Both the position numbers and the translations under genes were made by a program. Below are positions 2,217 to 53,907 of a DNA stretch of 54,782 bases, one piece after another. Source of the DNA: an archaeon. Lineage in GTDB: Archaea; Nanobdellota; Nanobdellia; Parvarchaeales; Parvarchaeaceae. Within the stretch, counting starts at the first letter, position 1; the number at the start of each line of letters is the position of its first letter. The stretch spans positions 1 through 54,782 of the forward strand of contig JBBIPE010000003.1 of NCBI GenBank assembly GCA_037443005.1, given 5' to 3'. The notes beneath the pieces are model-generated. The model did not search any database. It saw only the letters and a program-made list of their open reading frames with translations, and was not told the DNA's origin.

Positions 2217-2416
2217 TATTTATTTTAATTAAAGATTGTATTTAAGACTTAATAAGAACTACAGTGTAAAAAAAAGAATGTTTTCTTATGTACAATATAA
2301 AAAATACAAGTAATCTTTTTTAGATTAGTTATACCAAAAGTTACTAACAAATAATATTAGTTTACTAAAAATAGTCAATAATAAAAAAGAAACTATAAAT
2401 AACCTAATTAATACGG

Positions 2417-2626
2417 CGTATAAGATATCTAATTATTAGAAGGACTCTCCTTATAAAACCGCGAAGAAAAACATAACCCTTGTCTAAGCTATAGCTTAAT
2501 AATACAGAGGTAATCCGGGAGTCATTTGGGAGTAAAGCGGGATTAATCTGCGATTTATTGGTGGTAAAACTCACTAATTAGGCAGATAGGAAAAGGAAAA
2601 AAACTGGGATATCGGGATTGCCTTAG
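2417..2626 (+). repeat. copy A of the ~210-bp conserved non-coding module (no adjacent tRNA)
   Basis: It aligns block by block with 23034-23258 and 49873-50088 through GGACTCT..., CTAAGCTATAGCTTAA, GGGAGTCATTTGGGAGTAAAG, GGTAAAACTCACTAATTAGGCAG and GGGATATCGGGATTGCCTTA. Confidence 0.7.
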
Positions 2627-2766: not shown

Positions 2767-4380
2767 TTATAGAGGAATGACGTAATTCTCGCCATTTTCT
2801 TCAGTCTCCATATATCCCTCAGTATCAAGCTTCAATCTGATCTGTACAGGCTTCAGGTTGTATTTAGATGAAATATATTGTATGAATTTATTAGGTGTCT
2901 CATTAAAAGCGCTGTTACCTAATATTATCTCTTTGCACCCATATTCTTTAGCTCTATAACGGATATCCTCATATACCTTGTCGAAAATCTTTTTATCTCT
3001 GAAATCACGGCTTCCCTCTACTGAATCAACAAGAAACTTGTTCCCTTCCTTATAGCATATTGCACTGCCGGCAGCCTTTCCATCCAGATCATATCTGACA
3101 AGTATTACATTGGAATCATTGCAGTACTCGACGATACCTCCATCCACTGGCCCAGGGAAATAAACGCATGCCATCTGAACATTACGGTTGTAATCAAGCG
3201 GGTTCTTGCTTTCTACTGCGGACATTTTATGGGAATTATATGGAAGAATGTTCCCTCCTGCATCAAACATGTTCATCACTTTGCCGATGTATCCGTCTTT
3301 TACGTCTTTAAGGGTGGATACTGCAGTGTCATAATCTCCGTCTTTCATTGCCTTTATCAATTTAGGGATAACATCTCTGTGTTTGGTATAAAGCGCGTTT
3401 TTAGCACTATTTACAGCCTTTTCCCCGACAATGGAAGATACTACTGAGAAAGCTTCCTTGTACTTGATCTCATCCCTAGAGCCAAGTACGGATATCACCG
3501 CATATCCTTTCATTTCCTCGCTTGACAATTCAACGTTTTTGCTCCCAATAATATCTTCCAGTTTATTCCTGGTAGTATTTTCCAGTTTATACTCCTTTCG
3601 CCGCTCTTCCCTAGCATTATTCACGAGTTCTATTATTTCTTTTATATAATACGTATCATGCTTATCAAGTACCGCAAGCATCATCATCTGATCAAGGTTA
3701 AGCACCTTATGTACCCCATATCCTTCCATAAATCTATTTCTGGCAGTATCAATGTAACTTTTCATAGTGTCTTTAGTAGGCTTTGGCAGACCTAGTTTAT
3801 CACCAAAATTCAGATACAGCGAAACAGCATACAATCCGTCCATATCTGTTATCACTTCATCCAGACCCTCATTTATCACCGAAATCATCTTCGAATAATC
3901 TAAAATCATGGTGGCCGCTCTGCCTACTCTGTTTATCAGATTTGCACCCCTAAGTGTTTTATATTTGTCTCTGGTTTTATAAGCTATCCACCCAAGCTGA
4001 TTTGCTATCTCTGCTGCAGCATTATCAGAATACTTCCCAACAGTCTTAACTATCTCATTAAGACTTAGGATTTTACTTACATCTAAGACAGACTTTTTGT
4101 TTTTGGTTTGATCAACTATCTCCCTAAGCCAAAGTGCTATATCTGCTGCAGCATCACCATTATACCTTCCTATTGTTCTAGCACATTCAATAACTGTCTC
4201 TTGGTCTTGGATTTTATTAAATATCAACCCGAGATAATTAGCTATATCCTTAGAGGTAGGTACCTTATACTTAATTAATATCTCAACAACTTTCTTTTTG
4301 GCTTTAGGATCAAGAGAATTAAGCTGATTAAAAGTAGAATCAGTCGTTATTTTTCTAAGAATTTCATCAAGTTTTTCCAT
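2767..4380 (-). CDS. hypothetical 537-aa protein with N-terminal helical (HEAT-like) repeats and a possible acetyltransferase-like C-terminal domain
   Basis: A motif recurs three times: DIANYLGLIF, AADIALWLREIV, AAEIANQLGWIAY. The C-terminal region VDSVEGSRDFRDKKIFDKVYEDIRYRAKEYGCKEIILG resembles the beta4-alpha3 region of GNAT proteins but lacks a clean RxxGxG. Confidence 0.5.
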   Translation of the reverse strand: MEKLDEILRKITTDSTFNQLNSLDPKAKKKVVEILIKYKVPTSKDIANYLGLIFNKIQDQETVIECARTIGRYNGDAAADIALWLREIVDQTKNKKSVLDVSKILSLNEIVKTVGKYSDNAAAEIANQLGWIAYKTRDKYKTLRGANLINRVGRAATMILDYSKMISVINEGLDEVITDMDGLYAVSLYLNFGDKLGLPKPTKDTMKSYIDTARNRFMEGYGVHKVLNLDQMMMLAVLDKHDTYYIKEIIELVNNAREERRKEYKLENTTRNKLEDIIGSKNVELSSEEMKGYAVISVLGSRDEIKYKEAFSVVSSIVGEKAVNSAKNALYTKHRDVIPKLIKAMKDGDYDTAVSTLKDVKDGYIGKVMNMFDAGGNILPYNSHKMSAVESKNPLDYNRNVQMACVYFPGPVDGGIVEYCNDSNVILVRYDLDGKAAGSAICYKEGNKFLVDSVEGSRDFRDKKIFDKVYEDIRYRAKEYGCKEIILGNSAFNETPNKFIQYISSKYNLKPVQIRLKLDTEGYMETEENGENYVIPL

Positions 4381-4967
4381 ATTTTATGCTTAAATTATTA
4401 TGATAGAAAAGAACTAGTATATAAACTTTTCTTTACTATAGAATCATAAATAATACAATATTATGGGATTATCCAATTATAGAGAAGATGTAAGTTAGGA
4501 AGCGAATCGAAAACTCTTTAATGTTCTCTTTGGCAGCAAACAATTAATGAAGCAGAATGTTTACCAATAAATACTGAATTATTTTACTAGATATGGAAAC
4601 TACCAAAAAAGGATTTTAGGAGTTTTTTAAGTCTGACTTAGTATTTTCGGAGTAATCGCTCTGATTTATTTTTATCGAGAACGTTTCAAAATCATTTTTA
4701 GTAGCATCGACTATATTCTTGTTCAGAATTTCACTAATAGCTATCAGATAGCAAACGTATTTGTGTATTTGATCTTATGAATGGTTATTCATTTAAAGAG
4801 TTTTAAGGAAATTAAGTATATCCTTTACATGGCAGGATCTGCTTCCTTAAGTTTTATTAAGCCGTTCTTTGTCAGATTCCCATACTTATACAATTCATTT
4901 TCCACAGTTTTTTGTTCACCCTCCTAAGTCATATAGACGTTTAAGAAGAGCATTACCGAATGTGACA

Positions 4968-5041
4968 TGCCCTCGCCAGGATTTGAACCTGGGTGCCCGG
5001 TTTAGGAAACCGGTATTCTGTCCAAGCTAAACTACGAGAGC
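4968..5041 (-). tRNA. tRNA-Arg (anticodon CCT)
   Basis: The reverse complement folds as a cloverleaf: acceptor GCTCTCG/CGAGGGC, anticodon arm CCGGT-TTCCTAA-ACCGG, T arm CCAGG-TTCAAAT-CCTGG. Confidence 0.9.
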
Positions 5042-5119
5042 ATAGTCAAAAAAGACTTTTTGAGCTTAAATTAGTTTATGTTAAAGCTATAAATAGTATA
5101 CTTTATCATCTTATTTCTT

Positions 5120-19564: not shown

Positions 19565-19605
19565 AAATTATTATAAATATTACAGATGCTGCTTATAAAG
19601 GATAT

Positions 19606-19677
19606 GGGCCGGTGGTCTAATGGCATGACATCACGTTCGCATCGTGAAGGCTCCGAGTTCAAATCTCGGCCGGTCCA
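19606..19677 (+). tRNA. tRNA-Ala (anticodon CGC)
   Basis: Acceptor GGGCCGG/CCGGTCC carries the G3:U70 identity pair. The anticodon arm is TCACG-TTCGCAT-CGTGA. Confidence 0.9.
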
Positions 19678-19694
19678 TAGATTCTAAATCAGTG

Positions 19695-22871: not shown

Positions 22872-22952
22872 ATATTAAATAAATGCGCTTTGCTAATAAA
22901 AGTGGTGTTTATGTATAATTTATTAATATACCGCATCTATATTATCTATACT

Positions 22953-23025
22953 GCTCTCGTAGTCTAGCGGCCAAGGACAGTGGCCTCTCGAGTCACTGAC
23001 CCGGGTTCAAATCCCGGCGGGAGCA
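22953..23025 (+). tRNA. tRNA-Glu (anticodon CTC)
   Basis: Acceptor GCTCTCG/CGGGAGC, anticodon arm GTGGC-CTCTCGA-GTCAC, T arm CCGGG-TTCAAAT-CCCGG. Confidence 0.9.
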
Positions 23026-23033
23026 TTTTAAAT

Positions 23034-23258
23034 TTTGGTATATAATGTCTCTTTCTTAAACGGACTCTTATCCCCAAAACCCCAAAGTAAAGCCCAATCC
23101 ATACCTAAATCATAGCCTAAACCTGCAGAGGTAATCTGGGAGTCATTTGGGAGTAGAGTGGGAGTAAAGTGGGATTCATTGGGGGTAAAACTCACTAATT
23201 AGGCAGCTGGGAAAAAGGGAAAAACTCGGGAAATCGGGATCGGCTTAAAAGTTTAAAG
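23034..23258 (+). repeat. copy B of the ~210-bp conserved non-coding module, starting ~8 nt after tRNA-Glu
   Basis: It has the same ordered blocks as copies A and C. GGGAGT-type units start at 23138, 23149, 23160, 23171 and 23181. Confidence 0.75.
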
Positions 23259-23277
23259 AATATTTAAATAAAAAAAT

Positions 23278-23964
23278 ATGAGTTTAGTTATGGAAAGCGA
23301 AAAGCAAAAATATCGCCAGATGTTAGGTTTCTTTTCTGAGTGGATAACCACAAGATATTTCTTGTACAACAGGAACTTTGTTGTATCCTTTAATCATCAC
23401 TATATAAAACGTTGGGATGGTGCAGAAAAATTTAGAAAAACGCTAAAAAACTTACTGAATTTAATCAGAAAATCTGAACTTTTTCATGAATATTACCAAG
23501 ATATAATTGAAAAAAACGATGAATTTGAAGCATTTGATTTATTTGCACAATTAAATGTAATAGAGTTTCTAAGGGTTGAAAATAAGAACATCATAATAAG
23601 CGAAATAAAGAGCAAATATTACTTTGACAAAACCAGTTATTACGTACAACCTACAAAAATTCAAATTAAAAAACTGATAGAACTGTCCAAAATCGGCATC
23701 GATACTTCAATTATTTTGGTTATAATGATGGAAAAACCTAAATTCTTAGAGATACCTTTTACAAAATTTAGAATCCCATTAAACTTAGAAGAAAAAGCTG
23801 ATGATAAAATAAAATTAAGGATACCACCCGAGTATAGAAGACTGTCATTATTTAAGGAAATCGAACCTGAGGTTTATTATCCTTTCAATTGGTCGTCATT
23901 AGAGGAACTTATAGGACAAATTATTAAATTTAAAAATCCTGATTTTAATAAAGGGATATCGTAA
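23278..23964 (+). CDS. hypothetical protein with Hjc-like PD-(D/E)xK nuclease core
   Basis: FDLFAQ...IIISEIKSK...QIKKLIELSKIGIDTSIILVIM follows the D...E-x-K plus helix plus beta layout of archaeal Holliday-junction resolvases. Confidence 0.4.
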   Translation: MSLVMESEKQKYRQMLGFFSEWITTRYFLYNRNFVVSFNHHYIKRWDGAEKFRKTLKNLLNLIRKSELFHEYYQDIIEKNDEFEAFDLFAQLNVIEFLRVENKNIIISEIKSKYYFDKTSYYVQPTKIQIKKLIELSKIGIDTSIILVIMMEKPKFLEIPFTKFRIPLNLEEKADDKIKLRIPPEYRRLSLFKEIEPEVYYPFNWSSLEELIGQIIKFKNPDFNKGIS

Positions 23965-24650: not shown

Positions 24651-25059
24651 AATAGAGCTCCAAATACTGTAAAGGCATTGTCGATTGCTGACGAAAGCTG
24701 GATCTCAGAGAAGGAAAAGGAATCTGAGGGTATACTTAAAGGGTGGAATTAACTATATCCATAAACTTCGGCTCGCTGTGTGCTTTCGCCCTAAGATTCA
24801 AGATTATTCTCTAGCTTTGTCTGAAAGTTTTAGCACATTCTGGATCATTTCTGATGACAACAGGTATGTCTTTTATATCCGACTCTATAATCTAATATGT
24901 TATTTTTAAGGATAGGTATATCACGGATGGTATCATAGGTTTAGGAAAATAATAAGAAAGCGGCCTGGCCCAGGTACCATTACCGAAAGCAAGGATAACG
25001 CCTCTATTTATTTTATCTAACATGGAATAATATTAATGTAAACTTGTTTAAATTTGATT

Positions 25060-27667: not shown

Positions 27668-27715
27668 ATTATTACTATAGTTTCTTCTTTTTATATAGTT
27701 TTAAAATACAAAAAT

Positions 27716-27798
27716 CGTCGGGAGTGGGATTCGAACCCACGCAGGCTTTCGCCAACACGCTTAGCAGGCGTGCCTCGTAACCGCTTGAGTATCCCGAC
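27716..27798 (-). tRNA. tRNA-Ser (anticodon GCT), long variable arm
   Basis: Reverse-complement cloverleaf: acceptor GTCGGGA/TCCCGAC, anticodon arm CACGC-CTGCTAA-GCGTG, T arm GTGGG-TTCGAAT-CCCAC. Confidence 0.9.
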
Positions 27799-27880
27799 AT
27801 CAAACAGATTAAAGTAGTTTAGATATTTTAAGCTATGCCATATAGCTACGACAACAAAGAATTTACTAATTTAAAACAAT

Positions 27881-35117: not shown

Positions 35118-35239
35118 GTCCCTGCGGCCGGATTCGAACCCGCAACCTACCGGTTTCTACAGCTGAAACTCTTCATCGCACTGACAAACAGCACTTGGTA
35201 ATTCTACAGCCGGTCGCTCTACCATTGGGCTACGCAGGG
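35118..35239 (-). tRNA. tRNA-Tyr (anticodon GTA) with a 49-nt intron at the canonical 37/38 position
   Basis: Acceptor CCCTGCG/CGCAGGG has the C1:G72 archaeal Tyr identity pair. The anticodon stem ACCGG/CCGGT is interrupted after CTGTAG. Gene length of 122 nt minus 73 nt mature tRNA gives the intron size. Confidence 0.85.
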
Positions 35240-49793: not shown

Positions 49794-49865
49794 AGCCCCT
49801 TAGTCTAGCGGCAAGGACGACAGGCTCTGGACCTGTAAACACCGGTTCAAATCCGATAGGGGCTA
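49794..49865 (+). tRNA. tRNA-Gln (anticodon CTG)
   Basis: Acceptor AGCCCCT/AGGGGCT has A1:U72 (the archaeal Gln feature). The anticodon arm is ACAGG-CTCTGGA-CCTGT. The T stem shows one C-A mismatch as I fold it. Confidence 0.85.
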
Positions 49866-49872
49866 CTTCTTA

Positions 49873-50088
49873 TTTGGGGTATATGATATCTCATTATTAA
49901 AAGGACTCTTATCCCCAAAACCCCAAAGGAAAGCCCAATCCCTGTCTAAGCTATGGCCTAAGCATGCGGGAGTAATGTGGGAGTCATTTGGGAGTAGAGT
50001 GGGATTCGTTGGGAGTAAAACTCACTAATTGGGGAGTCTGGGAAAAGGGGGAAAATTCGGGATATCAGGATTGCTTTAAAAGTTTAAA
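49873..50088 (+). repeat. copy C of the ~210-bp conserved non-coding module, starting ~8 nt after tRNA-Gln
   Basis: It has the same ordered blocks as copies A and B. GGGAGT-type units start at 49968, 49979, 49990, 50001 and 50011. Confidence 0.75.
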
Positions 50089-50213
50089 AAAAATATTATA
50101 TAATAGATAATATATGGTTAAAAATGATGATAAAGAAAGCAAAAAGGAAAAGCCGATCTTATCTAAACAGAATTTTAAAAATATAATATGATACAAATAT
50201 AGTACACAAACAT

Positions 50214-50699
50214 ATGGAAAATATCAAAATAGTACGGCCCAAAAGAACCGATGCAAAGGACATATTTAGGCTGCAGAAAGAGTTCGATGCGTATTTACAA
50301 AGCCTTACAAAGAAGAAACGCAAAGACCACGCTTTGAAACGCGAAAAGGCTTTCATGCGCTATGGTTTTGGCAAGAACCGGTTGTTCTATACATTGATAG
50401 CCAAAAAGAATAGAGTGGCCGTAGGTTATATCTGTTACCATCTCGGATATGATCCCGATGAAATGCAGGGGCCGGTAATCCATGTAATTGATATATTTGT
50501 TAGCTCGTCTGCGCGTGGACATGGTATAGGCAAATCGCTTATGAAAGCGGTTGCTGAAGTCTGTAAAAGAAAGGGCGGTTTTGCACTTTATTTTGCCGTG
50601 TGGAATAAGAATAAATCGGCAATAAAATTCTATAAGAAACTCGGTGCTGACTGGGAGAGAGAAGTGCCGTTCATGCATTGGTTTTTAGACGGCAGATGA
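50214..50699 (+). CDS. GNAT-family N-acetyltransferase
   Basis: Motif A is IFVSSSARGHGIGKSLM. Confidence 0.8.
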   Translation: MENIKIVRPKRTDAKDIFRLQKEFDAYLQSLTKKKRKDHALKREKAFMRYGFGKNRLFYTLIAKKNRVAVGYICYHLGYDPDEMQGPVIHVIDIFVSSSARGHGIGKSLMKAVAEVCKRKGGFALYFAVWNKNKSAIKFYKKLGADWEREVPFMHWFLDGR

Positions 50700-50869: not shown

Positions 50870-51184
50870 TTGTTATTAACATCTTTGGTTGTAGTGCTAA
50901 TTTTTTGTTTTGCTCTGCTACTGATGATTAATTACAGGGTAAATTTCCTCTTTGCTGTGCCAATTTGGATTGTCTTATCACTATTTTATATTGTAACAAT
51001 AAAAAGATATTTAGAAAGAGAGGCCGATATCATCGCTGCCCGTAAAGTTGGCAAGGATGTTTTTAAGAAGTCATTACAAAAATTATCGAAAATTGGTATG
51101 CCCAATGACTGTTTGTTCCATGGTACTTTCTCTTTTAGAATTAAAAGAATAGAAAAAATTAACCTATCAAAAATTAGTCGTTAA
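50870..51184 (+). pseudogene. M48/HtpX-like peptidase remnant lacking HExxH
   Basis: The tail READIIAARKVGKDVFKKSLQKL resembles the third-ligand / C-terminal helix of M48 peptidases. No HExxH is present. The ORF starts at TTG, and an upstream ATG (50856) is out of frame and stops after 7 codons. Confidence 0.35.
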
Positions 51185-53907
51185 TTATCTTTTAAACTAT
51201 CCTCAATTATTTTCTTTTCTTCTTCTGTTATTCCGTAAATTTTGTATACAAGACTATCAATTATGTTTCCTATGCCCATTATCTCGTTCTCTAATTTTGC
51301 GTTGGTATCGGTTCTCTTATCAAGGGACTTATTAAGTTGCTTCTGTAATAATAATCTTTTATCGACAAGTTCTACAATTTCTTTTTGCTCGTTCTTTGAG
51401 ATTATCTTTATTGGTAGAGCTCGTATATTATTAGGATAAACATGCAATCCCGAGCCAATAAAAGTTTTGAAATAAAATTTCATAAGTTTTGAGTTAAAAA
51501 TCGCTAGTATGTAACGTATGTCGTATCTTTTAGACTCAGTTATTTGCTCTTTAGTTAACGTTAGCCCCCTCCTTTTTATTCCAAAGAGCTCAAAAAATGG
51601 TAAGCATATTGACAAAGTATGTTCGACATAATAATTTTCAGTATCTAATGTAGCTTTTATACCTCCCTTTGCGTTTACATCTCTAATGATTATTTTTGGA
51701 TTTTCAAAAAGCTCTTTAAACATTGGGTTATATAATTTTTTTATATCATACAACAGGTATTTTCCATCATAGTTTATTGTGTATCTATCAATATCTCTAC
51801 CATCTAACATCGGTTTACAAAGATCATTTATTTTTTGTTTTAAAACAAAATTTTTAATATCCCCACTTCTAGCCCCCCAATTTACATAACATATATCTTT
51901 TACTAAAACTGAATTTGTTTCAATTTTTTGTTTTAGCTTCATTTTTGTTGGGTTTATATCAATTCTAAATAGAGTTTGTTTATCATCAGAATACATAGAT
52001 TGTTTTATCTCTAATATATTTTCCTCAATTATATTTTTGTTTTTTGGGTCTTCTGTTGGTCTTACAATCTTGATTTTATTTTTATCTCTTTTTACCTTAT
52101 CTTTATTTTTTCTAAGAACTATAATTATATTATCAACTGTTGCATCTGCGAATATTTTATAGTTAGTTAAGTCAACAATTTTAATTATACAACAATTTTC
52201 GGTGATATATTTTCTTATCATTTCACCGTATGGCTGTAATAAAAATTTATCGGGCACTATAAAACTAAAGTATCCACCTTCTCTTAAAAGTTTTGTTGCT
52301 CTTTCTATGAATAATACATACAAATCGAATTTCTTATGAGCACTGAAATAGATTTTTTGGTAGTAGTCTATTTCTTTTTTATTTTTAGACAGCAGATAAA
52401 TGTTGACATAAGGCGGATTCCCGATTACAATATAAAATCCACCTTCCTTGATTATTCCTGGGAATTGTTCTTCCCATTTGAAAGCTTTATCACCTACAAT
52501 TTTCGGGTCGTCTATCAAAGAGTTCCCAACTTTCAAGTTATCCCTTAGAACTGGTAATAATTCTCCCTTTGATAGAGAATTACTTTTCGATAGAGTTAAT
52601 ACAGTTAGATAGATATTGAGTTCAGCGATTTTTATGGCCTTCCCATCCAAATCTACACCAAAAACATTATTCTTTATTACTTCCAATTTTTGTTTTGGAG
52701 AAAAATTCTCATAGTCTTCGTAATTTTCGGTATAATATTCATCTAAAACTCTAACTGCTGCAATTAGAAACGAACCCGAACCACATGCCGGATCTAATAT
52801 TTTTAGTTTTTTAACTTCATTAAGTTTTGCAGTTTTAAGCTTTTCTCCTAAAGTATTTTCTATTATGTAATCTACGATATACTTAGGAGTATAGTAAATA
52901 CCCTGAGCTTTCCTTTGTGCGTTTCCTCCCGATAGTTTTATGCCTTTTTGGATATAAGATAGGTAGTTCTCATACATGCTTCCGAGTATATCCTGGTCTA
53001 TAGCAGCAAAGTTGTAGGATAGTTTACTATTAACTGGGTGAGATATTGTAGACAATACATCATTAATTACATCATCGCTTATTTCTAAATTTTCTACCTC
53101 AGATTTCTCTTCTGGCTTCCCAAATATGTCACTGTCATATTCTTCTCTGTAGTACTCAAATATCTTCTTAAGATTATAATAAACATTTGACTTATCACGT
53201 CTTATCAAAGGCTCAAGCTGTTTTTCCTCAAGAAGTTCAGCTTCTATCTTCTTTATGAATATTAGCCTGTTTATTATACCTTGGGTAAGTTCTTCATATT
53301 CATCATTAGAGTATTTAGTTTTATACTCTCTTTTTAGATAGTTATTAAGTTTCTCTCTAATTAAATTAATACTTAAAGTAAGCTCACTAGATATGTCTAT
53401 CTGCCCGGTCTTTATGCCTCTTCTTTTGGCCTCTTCTTCTATCCCTCCGTTTAATATATTGTCATTTCTAAACCACTTTAGCTGGCTTTCGATGTTATCT
53501 AAGCTGTAAGAAGTAAGCTCAATATCACAGAAAGGGGATATCTTGCCGTCGCTTCCTATATACCAGGCTTTGAACCATCTGAAATTGGTTAAAATTGCTA
53601 TGTTTACAGCCTTATTGTAAGCGTACTCCAGTACTTGATCATCATAATTGGAAGTGGATAAATCGACCCCTAATTTCTTTGCCTCTACAATAACCTTTGG
53701 TACCCTAAGGTACCAGTAGTCCGGTCTCTTAATGCTCTCTTTAGTCTCTACGGAAGCTTCCCTCCTTATGTTATCTTCATCCCAGCCTAGGACTTCTGTC
53801 AATAAAGGATCTATAAGCTTAGCTTTTGTATCATTTTCACTTAAAGTTTTATCTGATAAGAGCCTTTTACATTTCTCTATAAGCTCCTTCAGTCTTTCTA
53901 TTTGCAT
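51181..53907 (-). CDS. type IIG restriction-modification enzyme (fused PD-(D/E)xK nuclease, N6-adenine methyltransferase and target-recognition domain)
   Basis: The N-terminal HSDR_N-like nuclease reads AKLIDPLLTEVLGW...RPDYWY...VIVEAKK. Methyltransferase motif I is LDPACGSGSFL and motif IV is GNPPYV. A C-terminal TRD follows. Confidence 0.85.
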   Translation of the reverse strand: MQIERLKELIEKCKRLLSDKTLSENDTKAKLIDPLLTEVLGWDEDNIRREASVETKESIKRPDYWYLRVPKVIVEAKKLGVDLSTSNYDDQVLEYAYNKAVNIAILTNFRWFKAWYIGSDGKISPFCDIELTSYSLDNIESQLKWFRNDNILNGGIEEEAKRRGIKTGQIDISSELTLSINLIREKLNNYLKREYKTKYSNDEYEELTQGIINRLIFIKKIEAELLEEKQLEPLIRRDKSNVYYNLKKIFEYYREEYDSDIFGKPEEKSEVENLEISDDVINDVLSTISHPVNSKLSYNFAAIDQDILGSMYENYLSYIQKGIKLSGGNAQRKAQGIYYTPKYIVDYIIENTLGEKLKTAKLNEVKKLKILDPACGSGSFLIAAVRVLDEYYTENYEDYENFSPKQKLEVIKNNVFGVDLDGKAIKIAELNIYLTVLTLSKSNSLSKGELLPVLRDNLKVGNSLIDDPKIVGDKAFKWEEQFPGIIKEGGFYIVIGNPPYVNIYLLSKNKKEIDYYQKIYFSAHKKFDLYVLFIERATKLLREGGYFSFIVPDKFLLQPYGEMIRKYITENCCIIKIVDLTNYKIFADATVDNIIIVLRKNKDKVKRDKNKIKIVRPTEDPKNKNIIEENILEIKQSMYSDDKQTLFRIDINPTKMKLKQKIETNSVLVKDICYVNWGARSGDIKNFVLKQKINDLCKPMLDGRDIDRYTINYDGKYLLYDIKKLYNPMFKELFENPKIIIRDVNAKGGIKATLDTENYYVEHTLSICLPFFELFGIKRRGLTLTKEQITESKRYDIRYILAIFNSKLMKFYFKTFIGSGLHVYPNNIRALPIKIISKNEQKEIVELVDKRLLLQKQLNKSLDKRTDTNAKLENEIMGIGNIIDSLVYKIYGITEEEKKIIEDSLKDN

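Follow-up and report, generated by a model that had tools for sequence, protein, structure and literature searches.

Why does a short G-rich repeat recur at the pitch of the DNA helix in three non-coding segments of an archaeal chromosome, and what might it bind? The window considered here (the whole stretch of DNA analysed, 54,782 nucleotides) is archaeal chromosomal DNA of about 36–37% GC that encodes RNase P RNA, SRP RNA, 5S rRNA, tRNAs, topoisomerase VI, MCM and ribosomal proteins. The host is a DPANN archaeon of the acid-mine, Parvarchaeum/ARMAN-like type. Among named organisms, Candidatus Parvarchaeum/ARMAN-5 and other Parvarchaeota stand nearest to it (82% identity for a presenilin-like protease and 63–72% for Pelota), and a genome scan guided by Pelota found no close relative. 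The repeats lie within a non-coding module of about 210 bp with sharp borders, of which an nhmmer profile detects three plus-strand copies, and no others, in the window, with 79–83% identity between them. The copies, as delimited by alignment, nhmmer and the conservation profile, are:

2416 to 2626, plus strand: module copy A, solo and degenerate, with no tRNA, downstream promoter or ORF
23037 to 23257, plus strand: module copy B, starting about 11 nt past tRNA-Glu
49878 to 50089, plus strand: module copy C, starting about 12 nt past tRNA-Gln

From 5' to 3', the module is made up of a TATA-like GTATA(T/A)(A/G)AT, a GGACTCT, a C-tract arm, the array of repeats, the box GTAAAACTCACTAATT, a set of G/A tracts and the promoter-like GCTTAAAAGTTTAAA. 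The elements that surround the array are:

23062 to 23068, plus strand (2442 to 2448 in copy A, 49903 to 49909 in copy C): invariant GGACTCT on the 5' side, an inverted near-copy of the unit core, from alignment and conservation profile
23069 to 23125, plus strand (counterpart in copy C at 49910 to 49966): C-tract arm (TATCCCCAAAACCCCAAAGTAAAGCCCAATCC..., also written CCCCAAAACCCC...), from alignment and conservation profile
23185 to 23200, plus strand (2564 to 2579 in copy A, 50015 to 50030 in copy C): invariant box GTAAAACTCACTAATT, identical at 16 of 16 positions in the three copies, from copy comparison and conservation profile
23207 to 23242, plus strand (counterpart in copy C at 50038 to 50072): G/A-tract region CTGGGAAAAAGGGAAAAACTCGGGAAATCGGGATCG, from alignment

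The TATA-like sequence is conserved about 25 nt before GGACTCT, with A/T-rich boxes further upstream that are provided by the flank, and a further A/T-rich stretch adjoins the module on its 3' side. Two blocks, GGGAGTCATTTGGGAGTA and GTAAAACTCACTAATT, show no difference among the three copies, whose background identity is about 80%, and G and C tracts are retained in the modules despite a genome GC content of about 36%. These features bear on whether the module is merely a non-functional relic, that is, a decaying dispersed repeat left by past insertions, whose periodicity arose as a by-product of tandem-repeat slippage. The divergence between the copies is consistent with such decay, as is the condition of copy A, which has lost most of its G and C tracts and lacks both promoter and ORF, whereas the invariant blocks and the retained tracts argue against it.

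The arrays themselves are laid out as follows:

2505 to 2569, plus strand: array A, six slots, three of them intact, CAGAGGTAATC CGGGAGTCATT TGGGAGTAAAG CGGGATTAATC TGCGATTTAT TGGTGGTAAAA, from the unit table
23126 to 23190, plus strand: array B, six slots, CAGAGGTAATC TGGGAGTCATT TGGGAGTAGAG TGGGAGTAAAG TGGGATTCAT TGGGGGTAAAA, from pattern search, unit table and Tandem Repeats Finder
49967 to 50020, plus strand: array C, five slots with slot 3 deleted, CGGGAGTAATG TGGGAGTCATT TGGGAGTAGAG TGGGATTCGT TGGGAGTAAAA, the span first reported, from alignment, pattern search, unit table and Tandem Repeats Finder

The GGG of successive units starts at 49968, 49979, 49990, 50001 and 50011 in copy C, at 23138, 23149, 23160, 23171 and 23181 in copy B, and at 2517, 2528 and 2539 in copy A, in which degenerate units follow at 2550 (GCGATT) and 2560 (GGTGGT). 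An earlier sequence-only reading had given these coordinates exactly in all three copies, and its spacing of 11-11-11-10 bp also holds throughout, the mean of 10.75 bp placing the sites on approximately one face of B-DNA. Its count of five units in every copy is correct for B and C but not for A, where only three are intact, and the five units do not share a register as it had supposed. Rather, the copy alignment and the unit table resolve the array into six unit slots, of which copy B fills slots 1–5, with the degenerate CAGAGGTAATC in slot 0, while copy C fills slots 0, 1, 2, 4 and 5, slot 3 having gone in an exact 11-bp deletion. Slot 0 is a good unit in copy C and degenerate in A and B. 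This one exact 11-bp unit is the sole length change between the copies and leaves the phase intact; the spacing is therefore kept in all copies because change occurs in whole units. The ACTCAC of the GTAAAACTCACTAATT box is an inverted near-copy of the unit core, and in copy C slot 5 and the box together make up a GAGT-AAA-ACTC dyad.

As a consensus, the units read YGGGAGT plus an A/T-rich 4-nt spacer, with T7 present in 17 of 17 units, G3 in 16 of 17, and A5 also conserved. With up to two mismatches allowed, the double unit TGGGAGTNNNNTGGGAGT (TGGGAGTN4TGGGAGT) matches eight times where 0.18 matches are expected, always within the three modules, and the exact TGGGAGT occurs eight times in 54.8 kb, seven of them in modules. 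Tandem Repeats Finder independently called a period of 11 in copies B and C. The phased array is real and far above chance. Since the motif is essentially confined to the modules, it is not an operator scattered across the genome. Between copies, the rate of change in the spacer is similar to that in the core (counted from the unit table, on very few sites), as would be expected of a relic, and no partner genes were found in the searches described below; however, copies B and C have each retained five good units although their slots have different histories, and we consider a non-functional relic improbable.

Runs of G could also matter in their own right, if G tracts rather than GGGAGT formed DNA or RNA quadruplexes that influence transcription, replication or recombination. 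When a quadruplex motif is defined as four G3+ tracts with loops of up to 12 nt on either strand, all five non-overlapping motifs in the 54.8-kb window fall in modules B and C (23138–23238 and 49913–50061), compared with an expectation of 0.35 and a maximum of 2 in 200 shuffles, and there are none in about 110 kb of relatives' loci. However, copy A has no such motif, and all loops within the array are 8 nt long, a length that makes for weak quadruplexes. Moreover, T7 (17/17), A5 and the A/T-rich spacer are conserved although loops have no need of them, and this conservation of non-G positions suggests that sequence-specific recognition matters, not G tracts alone. A role as quadruplexes is therefore highly improbable.

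If the module were transcribed, it could act as plus-strand RNA, either as a non-coding RNA of about 190 nt or as the long 5' leader of the gene downstream, with the GGGAGU repeats either paired to the C-tract arm or recognised by an RNA-binding protein. The C-rich 5' half and G-rich 3' half of the module would suit such pairing, and the TATA-like GTATA(T/A)(A/G)AT before GGACTCT, together with the A/T-rich boxes further upstream, would suit its transcription. A hairpin that pairs the C-arm with the array is 86% paired across the three copies compared with 33–57% for slid controls, with many G-U pairs and with a structure derived from one of the compared sequences (copy B). Against this, Rfam returned no family match to the module at either the gathering threshold or an E-value of 10, only tRNA being found, and the module folds no better than shuffled sequence (z = -0.27, 0.03 and -0.79). 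Consensus folds are weak on both strands, and covariation equals that of the shuffle control (two double changes versus 1.7 in shuffles, from three copies only). In addition, no change in the other arm compensates for the 11-nt deletion in copy C, the module has neither an oligo-T nor a hairpin terminator, and the left TATA-like box is unlike the local GCTT-TAAATA consensus. Function as a plus-strand RNA is thus unlikely. A coding origin was also considered and rejected: a minus-strand ORF of 55–56 aa runs over A and B, but the 11-bp deletion breaks its frame in C and it is not in the protein collection.

The 3' end of the module connects the array to a gene, through the following features:

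23243 to 23257, plus strand (counterpart in copy C at 50073 to 50089): promoter-like GCTTAAAAGTTTAAA, absent in copy A and followed after 35 nt by the ATG at 23278, from a match to the local consensus
23278 to 23964, plus strand: 228-aa ORFan directly downstream of module B, a candidate binder, from the ORF list and homology and domain searches
50090 to 50151, plus strand: remnant in copy C of the sequence that follows module B, comprising the spacer and the start of the 228-aa ORF (about 12 codons), from local alignment of 23245–23309 with 50076–50151

A GCTT followed by an A/T run is found 31–35 nt before six gene or RNA starts in the window, and the local promoter consensus is apparently (A)AGCTT plus a TAAATA-like A/T stretch at that distance from start codons or RNA 5' ends (20739, 38810, 46623, 46782 and others). 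Promoters this close to start codons imply that transcripts in the host are mostly leaderless. GCTTAAAAGTTTAAA fits this consensus in both position and sequence. Copies B and C share about 65 nt past the module, including the start of the ORF, so that what was duplicated was an ancestor made up of module and gene together. In copy C the array is intact and the ORF gone, and copy A has neither promoter nor ORF. For the 228-aa product, no homologue, domain (Pfam, NCBIfam, PHROGs) or PDB sequence match was found, and AlphaFold2 gave no usable model (pLDDT 37).

The position of the modules along the chromosome is best seen at the tRNA loci that adjoin them, which include:

22952 to 23026, plus strand: tRNA-Glu(CTC), at whose 3' end homology with relatives ends
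49794 to 49866, plus strand: tRNA-Gln(CTG), immediately upstream of module C
4967 to 5042, minus strand: tRNA-Arg(CCT), whose 3' end is the exact start of a variable segment with module A at its far end
24823 to 25023, minus strand: pseudogene remnant of an NTP-transferase gene that marks where island B ends on its far side, with the first 68 codons kept and 53% identical to the gene in relatives, from homology and gene order

At the tRNA-Glu locus, relatives carry the permease, tRNA-Glu and downstream genes in the same order without the module, and the DNA beyond the tRNA-Glu 3' end varies by lineage. Module B thus stands at the edge of DNA that the relatives lack, an island of about 1.8 kb (23027 to about 24822) that is largely non-coding. 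In the relatives an intact NTP-transferase gene lies beside the UPF0259 gene. Island B truncated this neighbouring gene, leaving in the window a remnant that marks a deletion, and hence took the place of about 2 kb. At locus A, tRNA-Arg of ARMAN-5-like contigs is preceded by hemerythrin and then a LamG-domain gene. In their place the window carries module A, the gene for a 537-aa protein and a 590-nt non-coding stretch, and homology resumes exactly at the tRNA-Arg 3' end. Module A lies at the tRNA-distal edge of this variable segment and faces inward, toward the tRNA, a geometry opposite to that of B and C.

The 537-aa protein (2767–4380, minus strand) has HEAT-like N-terminal repeats and no Pfam, NCBIfam or PHROG match, and belongs to an unannotated family of about 106 cluster representatives (61 at E<1e-30, lengths 500–900 aa) that has no link to the module; its gene is absent from this locus in ARMAN-5-like relatives. 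The approximately 590 nt between it and tRNA-Arg (4381–4966) contain no convincing ORF and have no homology to the ARMAN-5 locus. Past module C the cargo consists of a GNAT acetyltransferase (50214–50699, plus strand) and a type IIG restriction-modification enzyme (51181–53907, minus strand; Eco57I/MmeI-like, 908 aa), in a region of about 32% GC, lower than the roughly 37% of the whole window. One T-arm string, GGTTCAAATCC, is common to the three tRNAs next to module-bearing variable segments (Arg 4967–5042, Glu 22952–23026 and Gln 49794–49866), while three tRNAs without modules (19605–19678, 27715–27799 and 35119–35239) carry AGTTCAAATCT or GGTTCGAATCC, a three-versus-three split that is only suggestive. 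The last of these (35119–35239, minus strand) is an intron-containing tRNA gene of 121 nt that matches Rfam and has no ARAGORN call.

This setting raises the possibility that the repeats are arm-type sites, the module being one att arm left beside a tRNA by a tyrosine-recombinase element, with the repeats bound by the arm-binding domain of the recombinase or by a directionality factor. Several observations agree with this. Copies B and C lie directly past tRNA 3' ends, the relatives' homology breaks exactly at the 3' ends of tRNA-Glu and tRNA-Arg, and the variable cargo comprises the ORFan, the GNAT acetyltransferase and the type IIG enzyme. As contiguous direct repeats of 10–11 bp, arrays B and C, which lie 100–165 bp past a tRNA 3' end, resemble P'1–P'3 of phage lambda. 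Direct repeats of about 10–11 bp within some 200 bp of a core, at a border with foreign DNA, are therefore present in B and C, although copy A, tRNA-distal and facing its tRNA, lacks this geometry. Other observations disagree: searches with Pfam, NCBIfam and PHROGs around every copy (locus C as far as the window end) recognised no integrase or transposase and no gene of the Rep, partition, ParA/ParM or ribbon-helix-helix kinds, and one and the same module stands behind two different tRNAs. No tRNA 18-mer recurs outside the tRNA genes of the whole window at up to two mismatches, so that there is no partial tRNA duplicate and no second att site. According to a review (PMC8371274), moreover, characterised archaeal recombinases use simple att sites, with lambda-type arms an exception. 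We judge an origin as arm-type sites to be quite unlikely. A classical attL/attR pair was also sought and rejected, as no tRNA 3' segment is duplicated in the window, and a MITE or transposon end was set aside because the three copies share no inverted repeat and all lie on the plus strand without an inverted partner.

Integrated plasmids or viruses could leave a similar array in the form of iterons or a centromere-like site, bound by an initiator or a partition adaptor and serving replication or segregation as well as autoregulation of the adjacent gene. The R1 parC/ParR, ParG and omega arrays have a like layout, with 5–6 contiguous repeats upstream of a promoter and gene, and the A/T-rich stretch past the module is in keeping with an origin. 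Partition centromeres of types Ib and II comprise at least five short, helically spaced repeats, as found here, but the motor (ParA/ParM) and adaptor genes that should adjoin them were not found, nor was any Rep or ribbon-helix-helix gene recognised. Classical iterons, at 17–22 bp, are longer than the 11-bp unit and are spaced at about two helical turns, whereas the units here are contiguous. Furthermore, island B spans only about 1.8 kb and is largely non-coding, and an active origin is not expected as three co-oriented copies in 50 kb of chromosome. An iteron or centromere role is accordingly very unlikely, and a chromosomal origin was rejected, given that the module is absent at the relatives' syntenic sites and no Orc1/Cdc6 was recognised. 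Of what the sequence-only reading proposed, the general idea of a DNA-site array is favoured by the whole-unit indel, the lack of RNA signal and the location at tRNA edges, but its specific labels of iteron and arm-type site are not supported, as no integrase, Rep or partition gene was recognised near the copies, no second att site was found in the window, the unit is only 11 bp long and the 228-aa candidate binder is an ORFan with no usable model.

Searches for further copies covered a range of collections. A strict pattern search of IMG/VR and the GTDB representative genomes found no module, the same type of pattern gave only two chance matches in JGI metagenomes, and two further module patterns gave chance-level or zero matches in IMG/VR, none of them homologous by nhmmer. 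Similarly, no module was found by blastn in phage and plasmid collections, or by nhmmer with a three-copy profile in about 110 kb of relatives' loci. The module is thus present in three copies in this archaeon and in no other collection searched. Logan contigs from the same population (SRR11582165) match the window almost exactly and break off within the modules, with contigs L001, L150 and L117 ending or starting at window positions 23082, 23053 and 50021, which hints at branching of the assembly graph caused by more copies, or by strain variants, elsewhere in the sample.

Arrays of the TGGGAGT type with 11-bp spacing are also present in unrelated phage contigs, where they occupy intergenic control regions. 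For example, phage contig L019 (IMGVR_UViG_2721755557_000002) has five TGGGAGT-type units at 11-bp spacing (2549–2600), between a late transcriptional activator gene (phrog_248) and HNH/terminase genes. A second phage family (L090, L052, L080, L011, L048 and L013) carries GCGGGAGTTGTGGGGGAGTTATGTGGGATTTGTGGGG between divergent genes, and no function is assigned to the genes around this array.

The reading that we tentatively prefer is that the repeats form a cooperative protein-binding DNA array within the upstream control region of an island-borne gene, in what remains of an integrative element. From three copies only, we infer that the array is bound by protein and controls the adjacent promoter, possibly also serving maintenance of the element, with a binder that the element itself encodes. 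Five to six same-face sites, each YGGGAGT plus an A/T-rich 4-nt spacer, would be bound cooperatively by one sequence-specific protein, about 85–150 bp upstream of the local-consensus promoter at the module 3' end. This promoter would drive a leaderless island gene, in copy B the 228-aa ORFan, whose product may be the element-encoded binder and could act in trans on copy C. On this view, the 210-bp module would represent both the end and the control region of a remnant left by a small integrative element that settled, in this lineage, in the 3' flank of tRNA genes.

Several lines of evidence point to such a control array, namely the non-chance phasing, the confinement of the motif to modules, the whole-unit indel and the conserved core. 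The promoter 35 nt before the ATG, the duplication of module together with gene, the lack of the module at relatives' loci, the truncation of a neighbouring gene by island B, the lack of RNA signal and the phage arrays of similar type are also in its favour. However, the candidate 228-aa binder has no homologue, domain or usable model, copy C keeps its array intact without the ORF, and copy A has neither promoter nor ORF. Similar rates of change in core and spacer (on very few sites) also weigh against it, as does the 86% pairing of the copy-B hairpin in three copies, which would suit RNA or cruciform pairing, and with three copies only, conservation may reflect common descent.

A bolder proposal is that the module is the recognition end of previously unknown small integrative elements in Parvarchaeum-like DPANN archaea, which would occupy tRNA 3' flanks without a recognisable integrase, the array being the assembly site of a novel binding or recombination protein, possibly the 228-aa ORFan. 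We think this rather unlikely, but if true, it would give archaeal elements their first described higher-order site of the arm-type or iteron-like sort; an arm-type array would be new in archaea because the characterised archaeal recombinases use simple att sites, with lambda-type arms treated as an exception (PMC8371274). Very little is known of gene regulation or of mobile elements in DPANN archaea, whose genomes are tiny. The module offers a handle for their study, in the form of a 60-bp probe and a candidate ORFan, and may lead to a new archaeal DNA-binding protein or a new route of insertion at tRNA flanks. Even if it were only a decaying relic, it would still mark three recent rearrangement points in the lineage.

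Known systems resemble the module in part. Like lambda attP (P'1–P'3) and tRNA-integrating islands, it has direct repeats of 10–11 bp on one face of the helix, within about 200 bp of a tRNA 3' end and at the border of variable DNA, but unlike them it has no integrase, core duplication or second arm, and one copy has the opposite geometry. By analogy, it may also be compared with R1 parC/ParR (11-bp repeats), the ACTC boxes of TP228 ParG and the heptads of pSM19035 omega, all of which have at least five short, contiguous, near-helical repeats by a promoter. The unit of R1 parC is likewise 11 bp, and ribbon-helix-helix adaptors bind such arrays. In contrast to these centromeres, the module has no ParM, ParA or ribbon-helix-helix gene as a neighbour, is chromosomal, occurs in three copies and has no sequence homology to them. 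With the iterons of Rep-dependent theta replicons it shares direct repeats upstream of a gene, followed by an A/T-rich stretch, but its unit is 11 bp rather than 17–22 bp and no Rep is recognisable.

Archaeal Lrp-type regulators bind helically phased boxes upstream of BRE/TATA promoters, usually two to three palindromic boxes of 13–15 bp. The helical phasing upstream of an archaeal promoter may be analogous in the module, although its sites are five to six contiguous direct 11-mers and no such regulator gene is adjacent. The phage TGGGAGT arrays (L019 at 2549–2600 and the L090/L052/L080 family) share the unit core, the 11-bp spacing and the intergenic location, but they have no homology to the module beyond the motif by which they were selected and come from bacterial phages, so that they serve as an analogy only. 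In its architecture, the array is of a known kind, that of phased direct repeats, placed in a new, lineage-specific setting.
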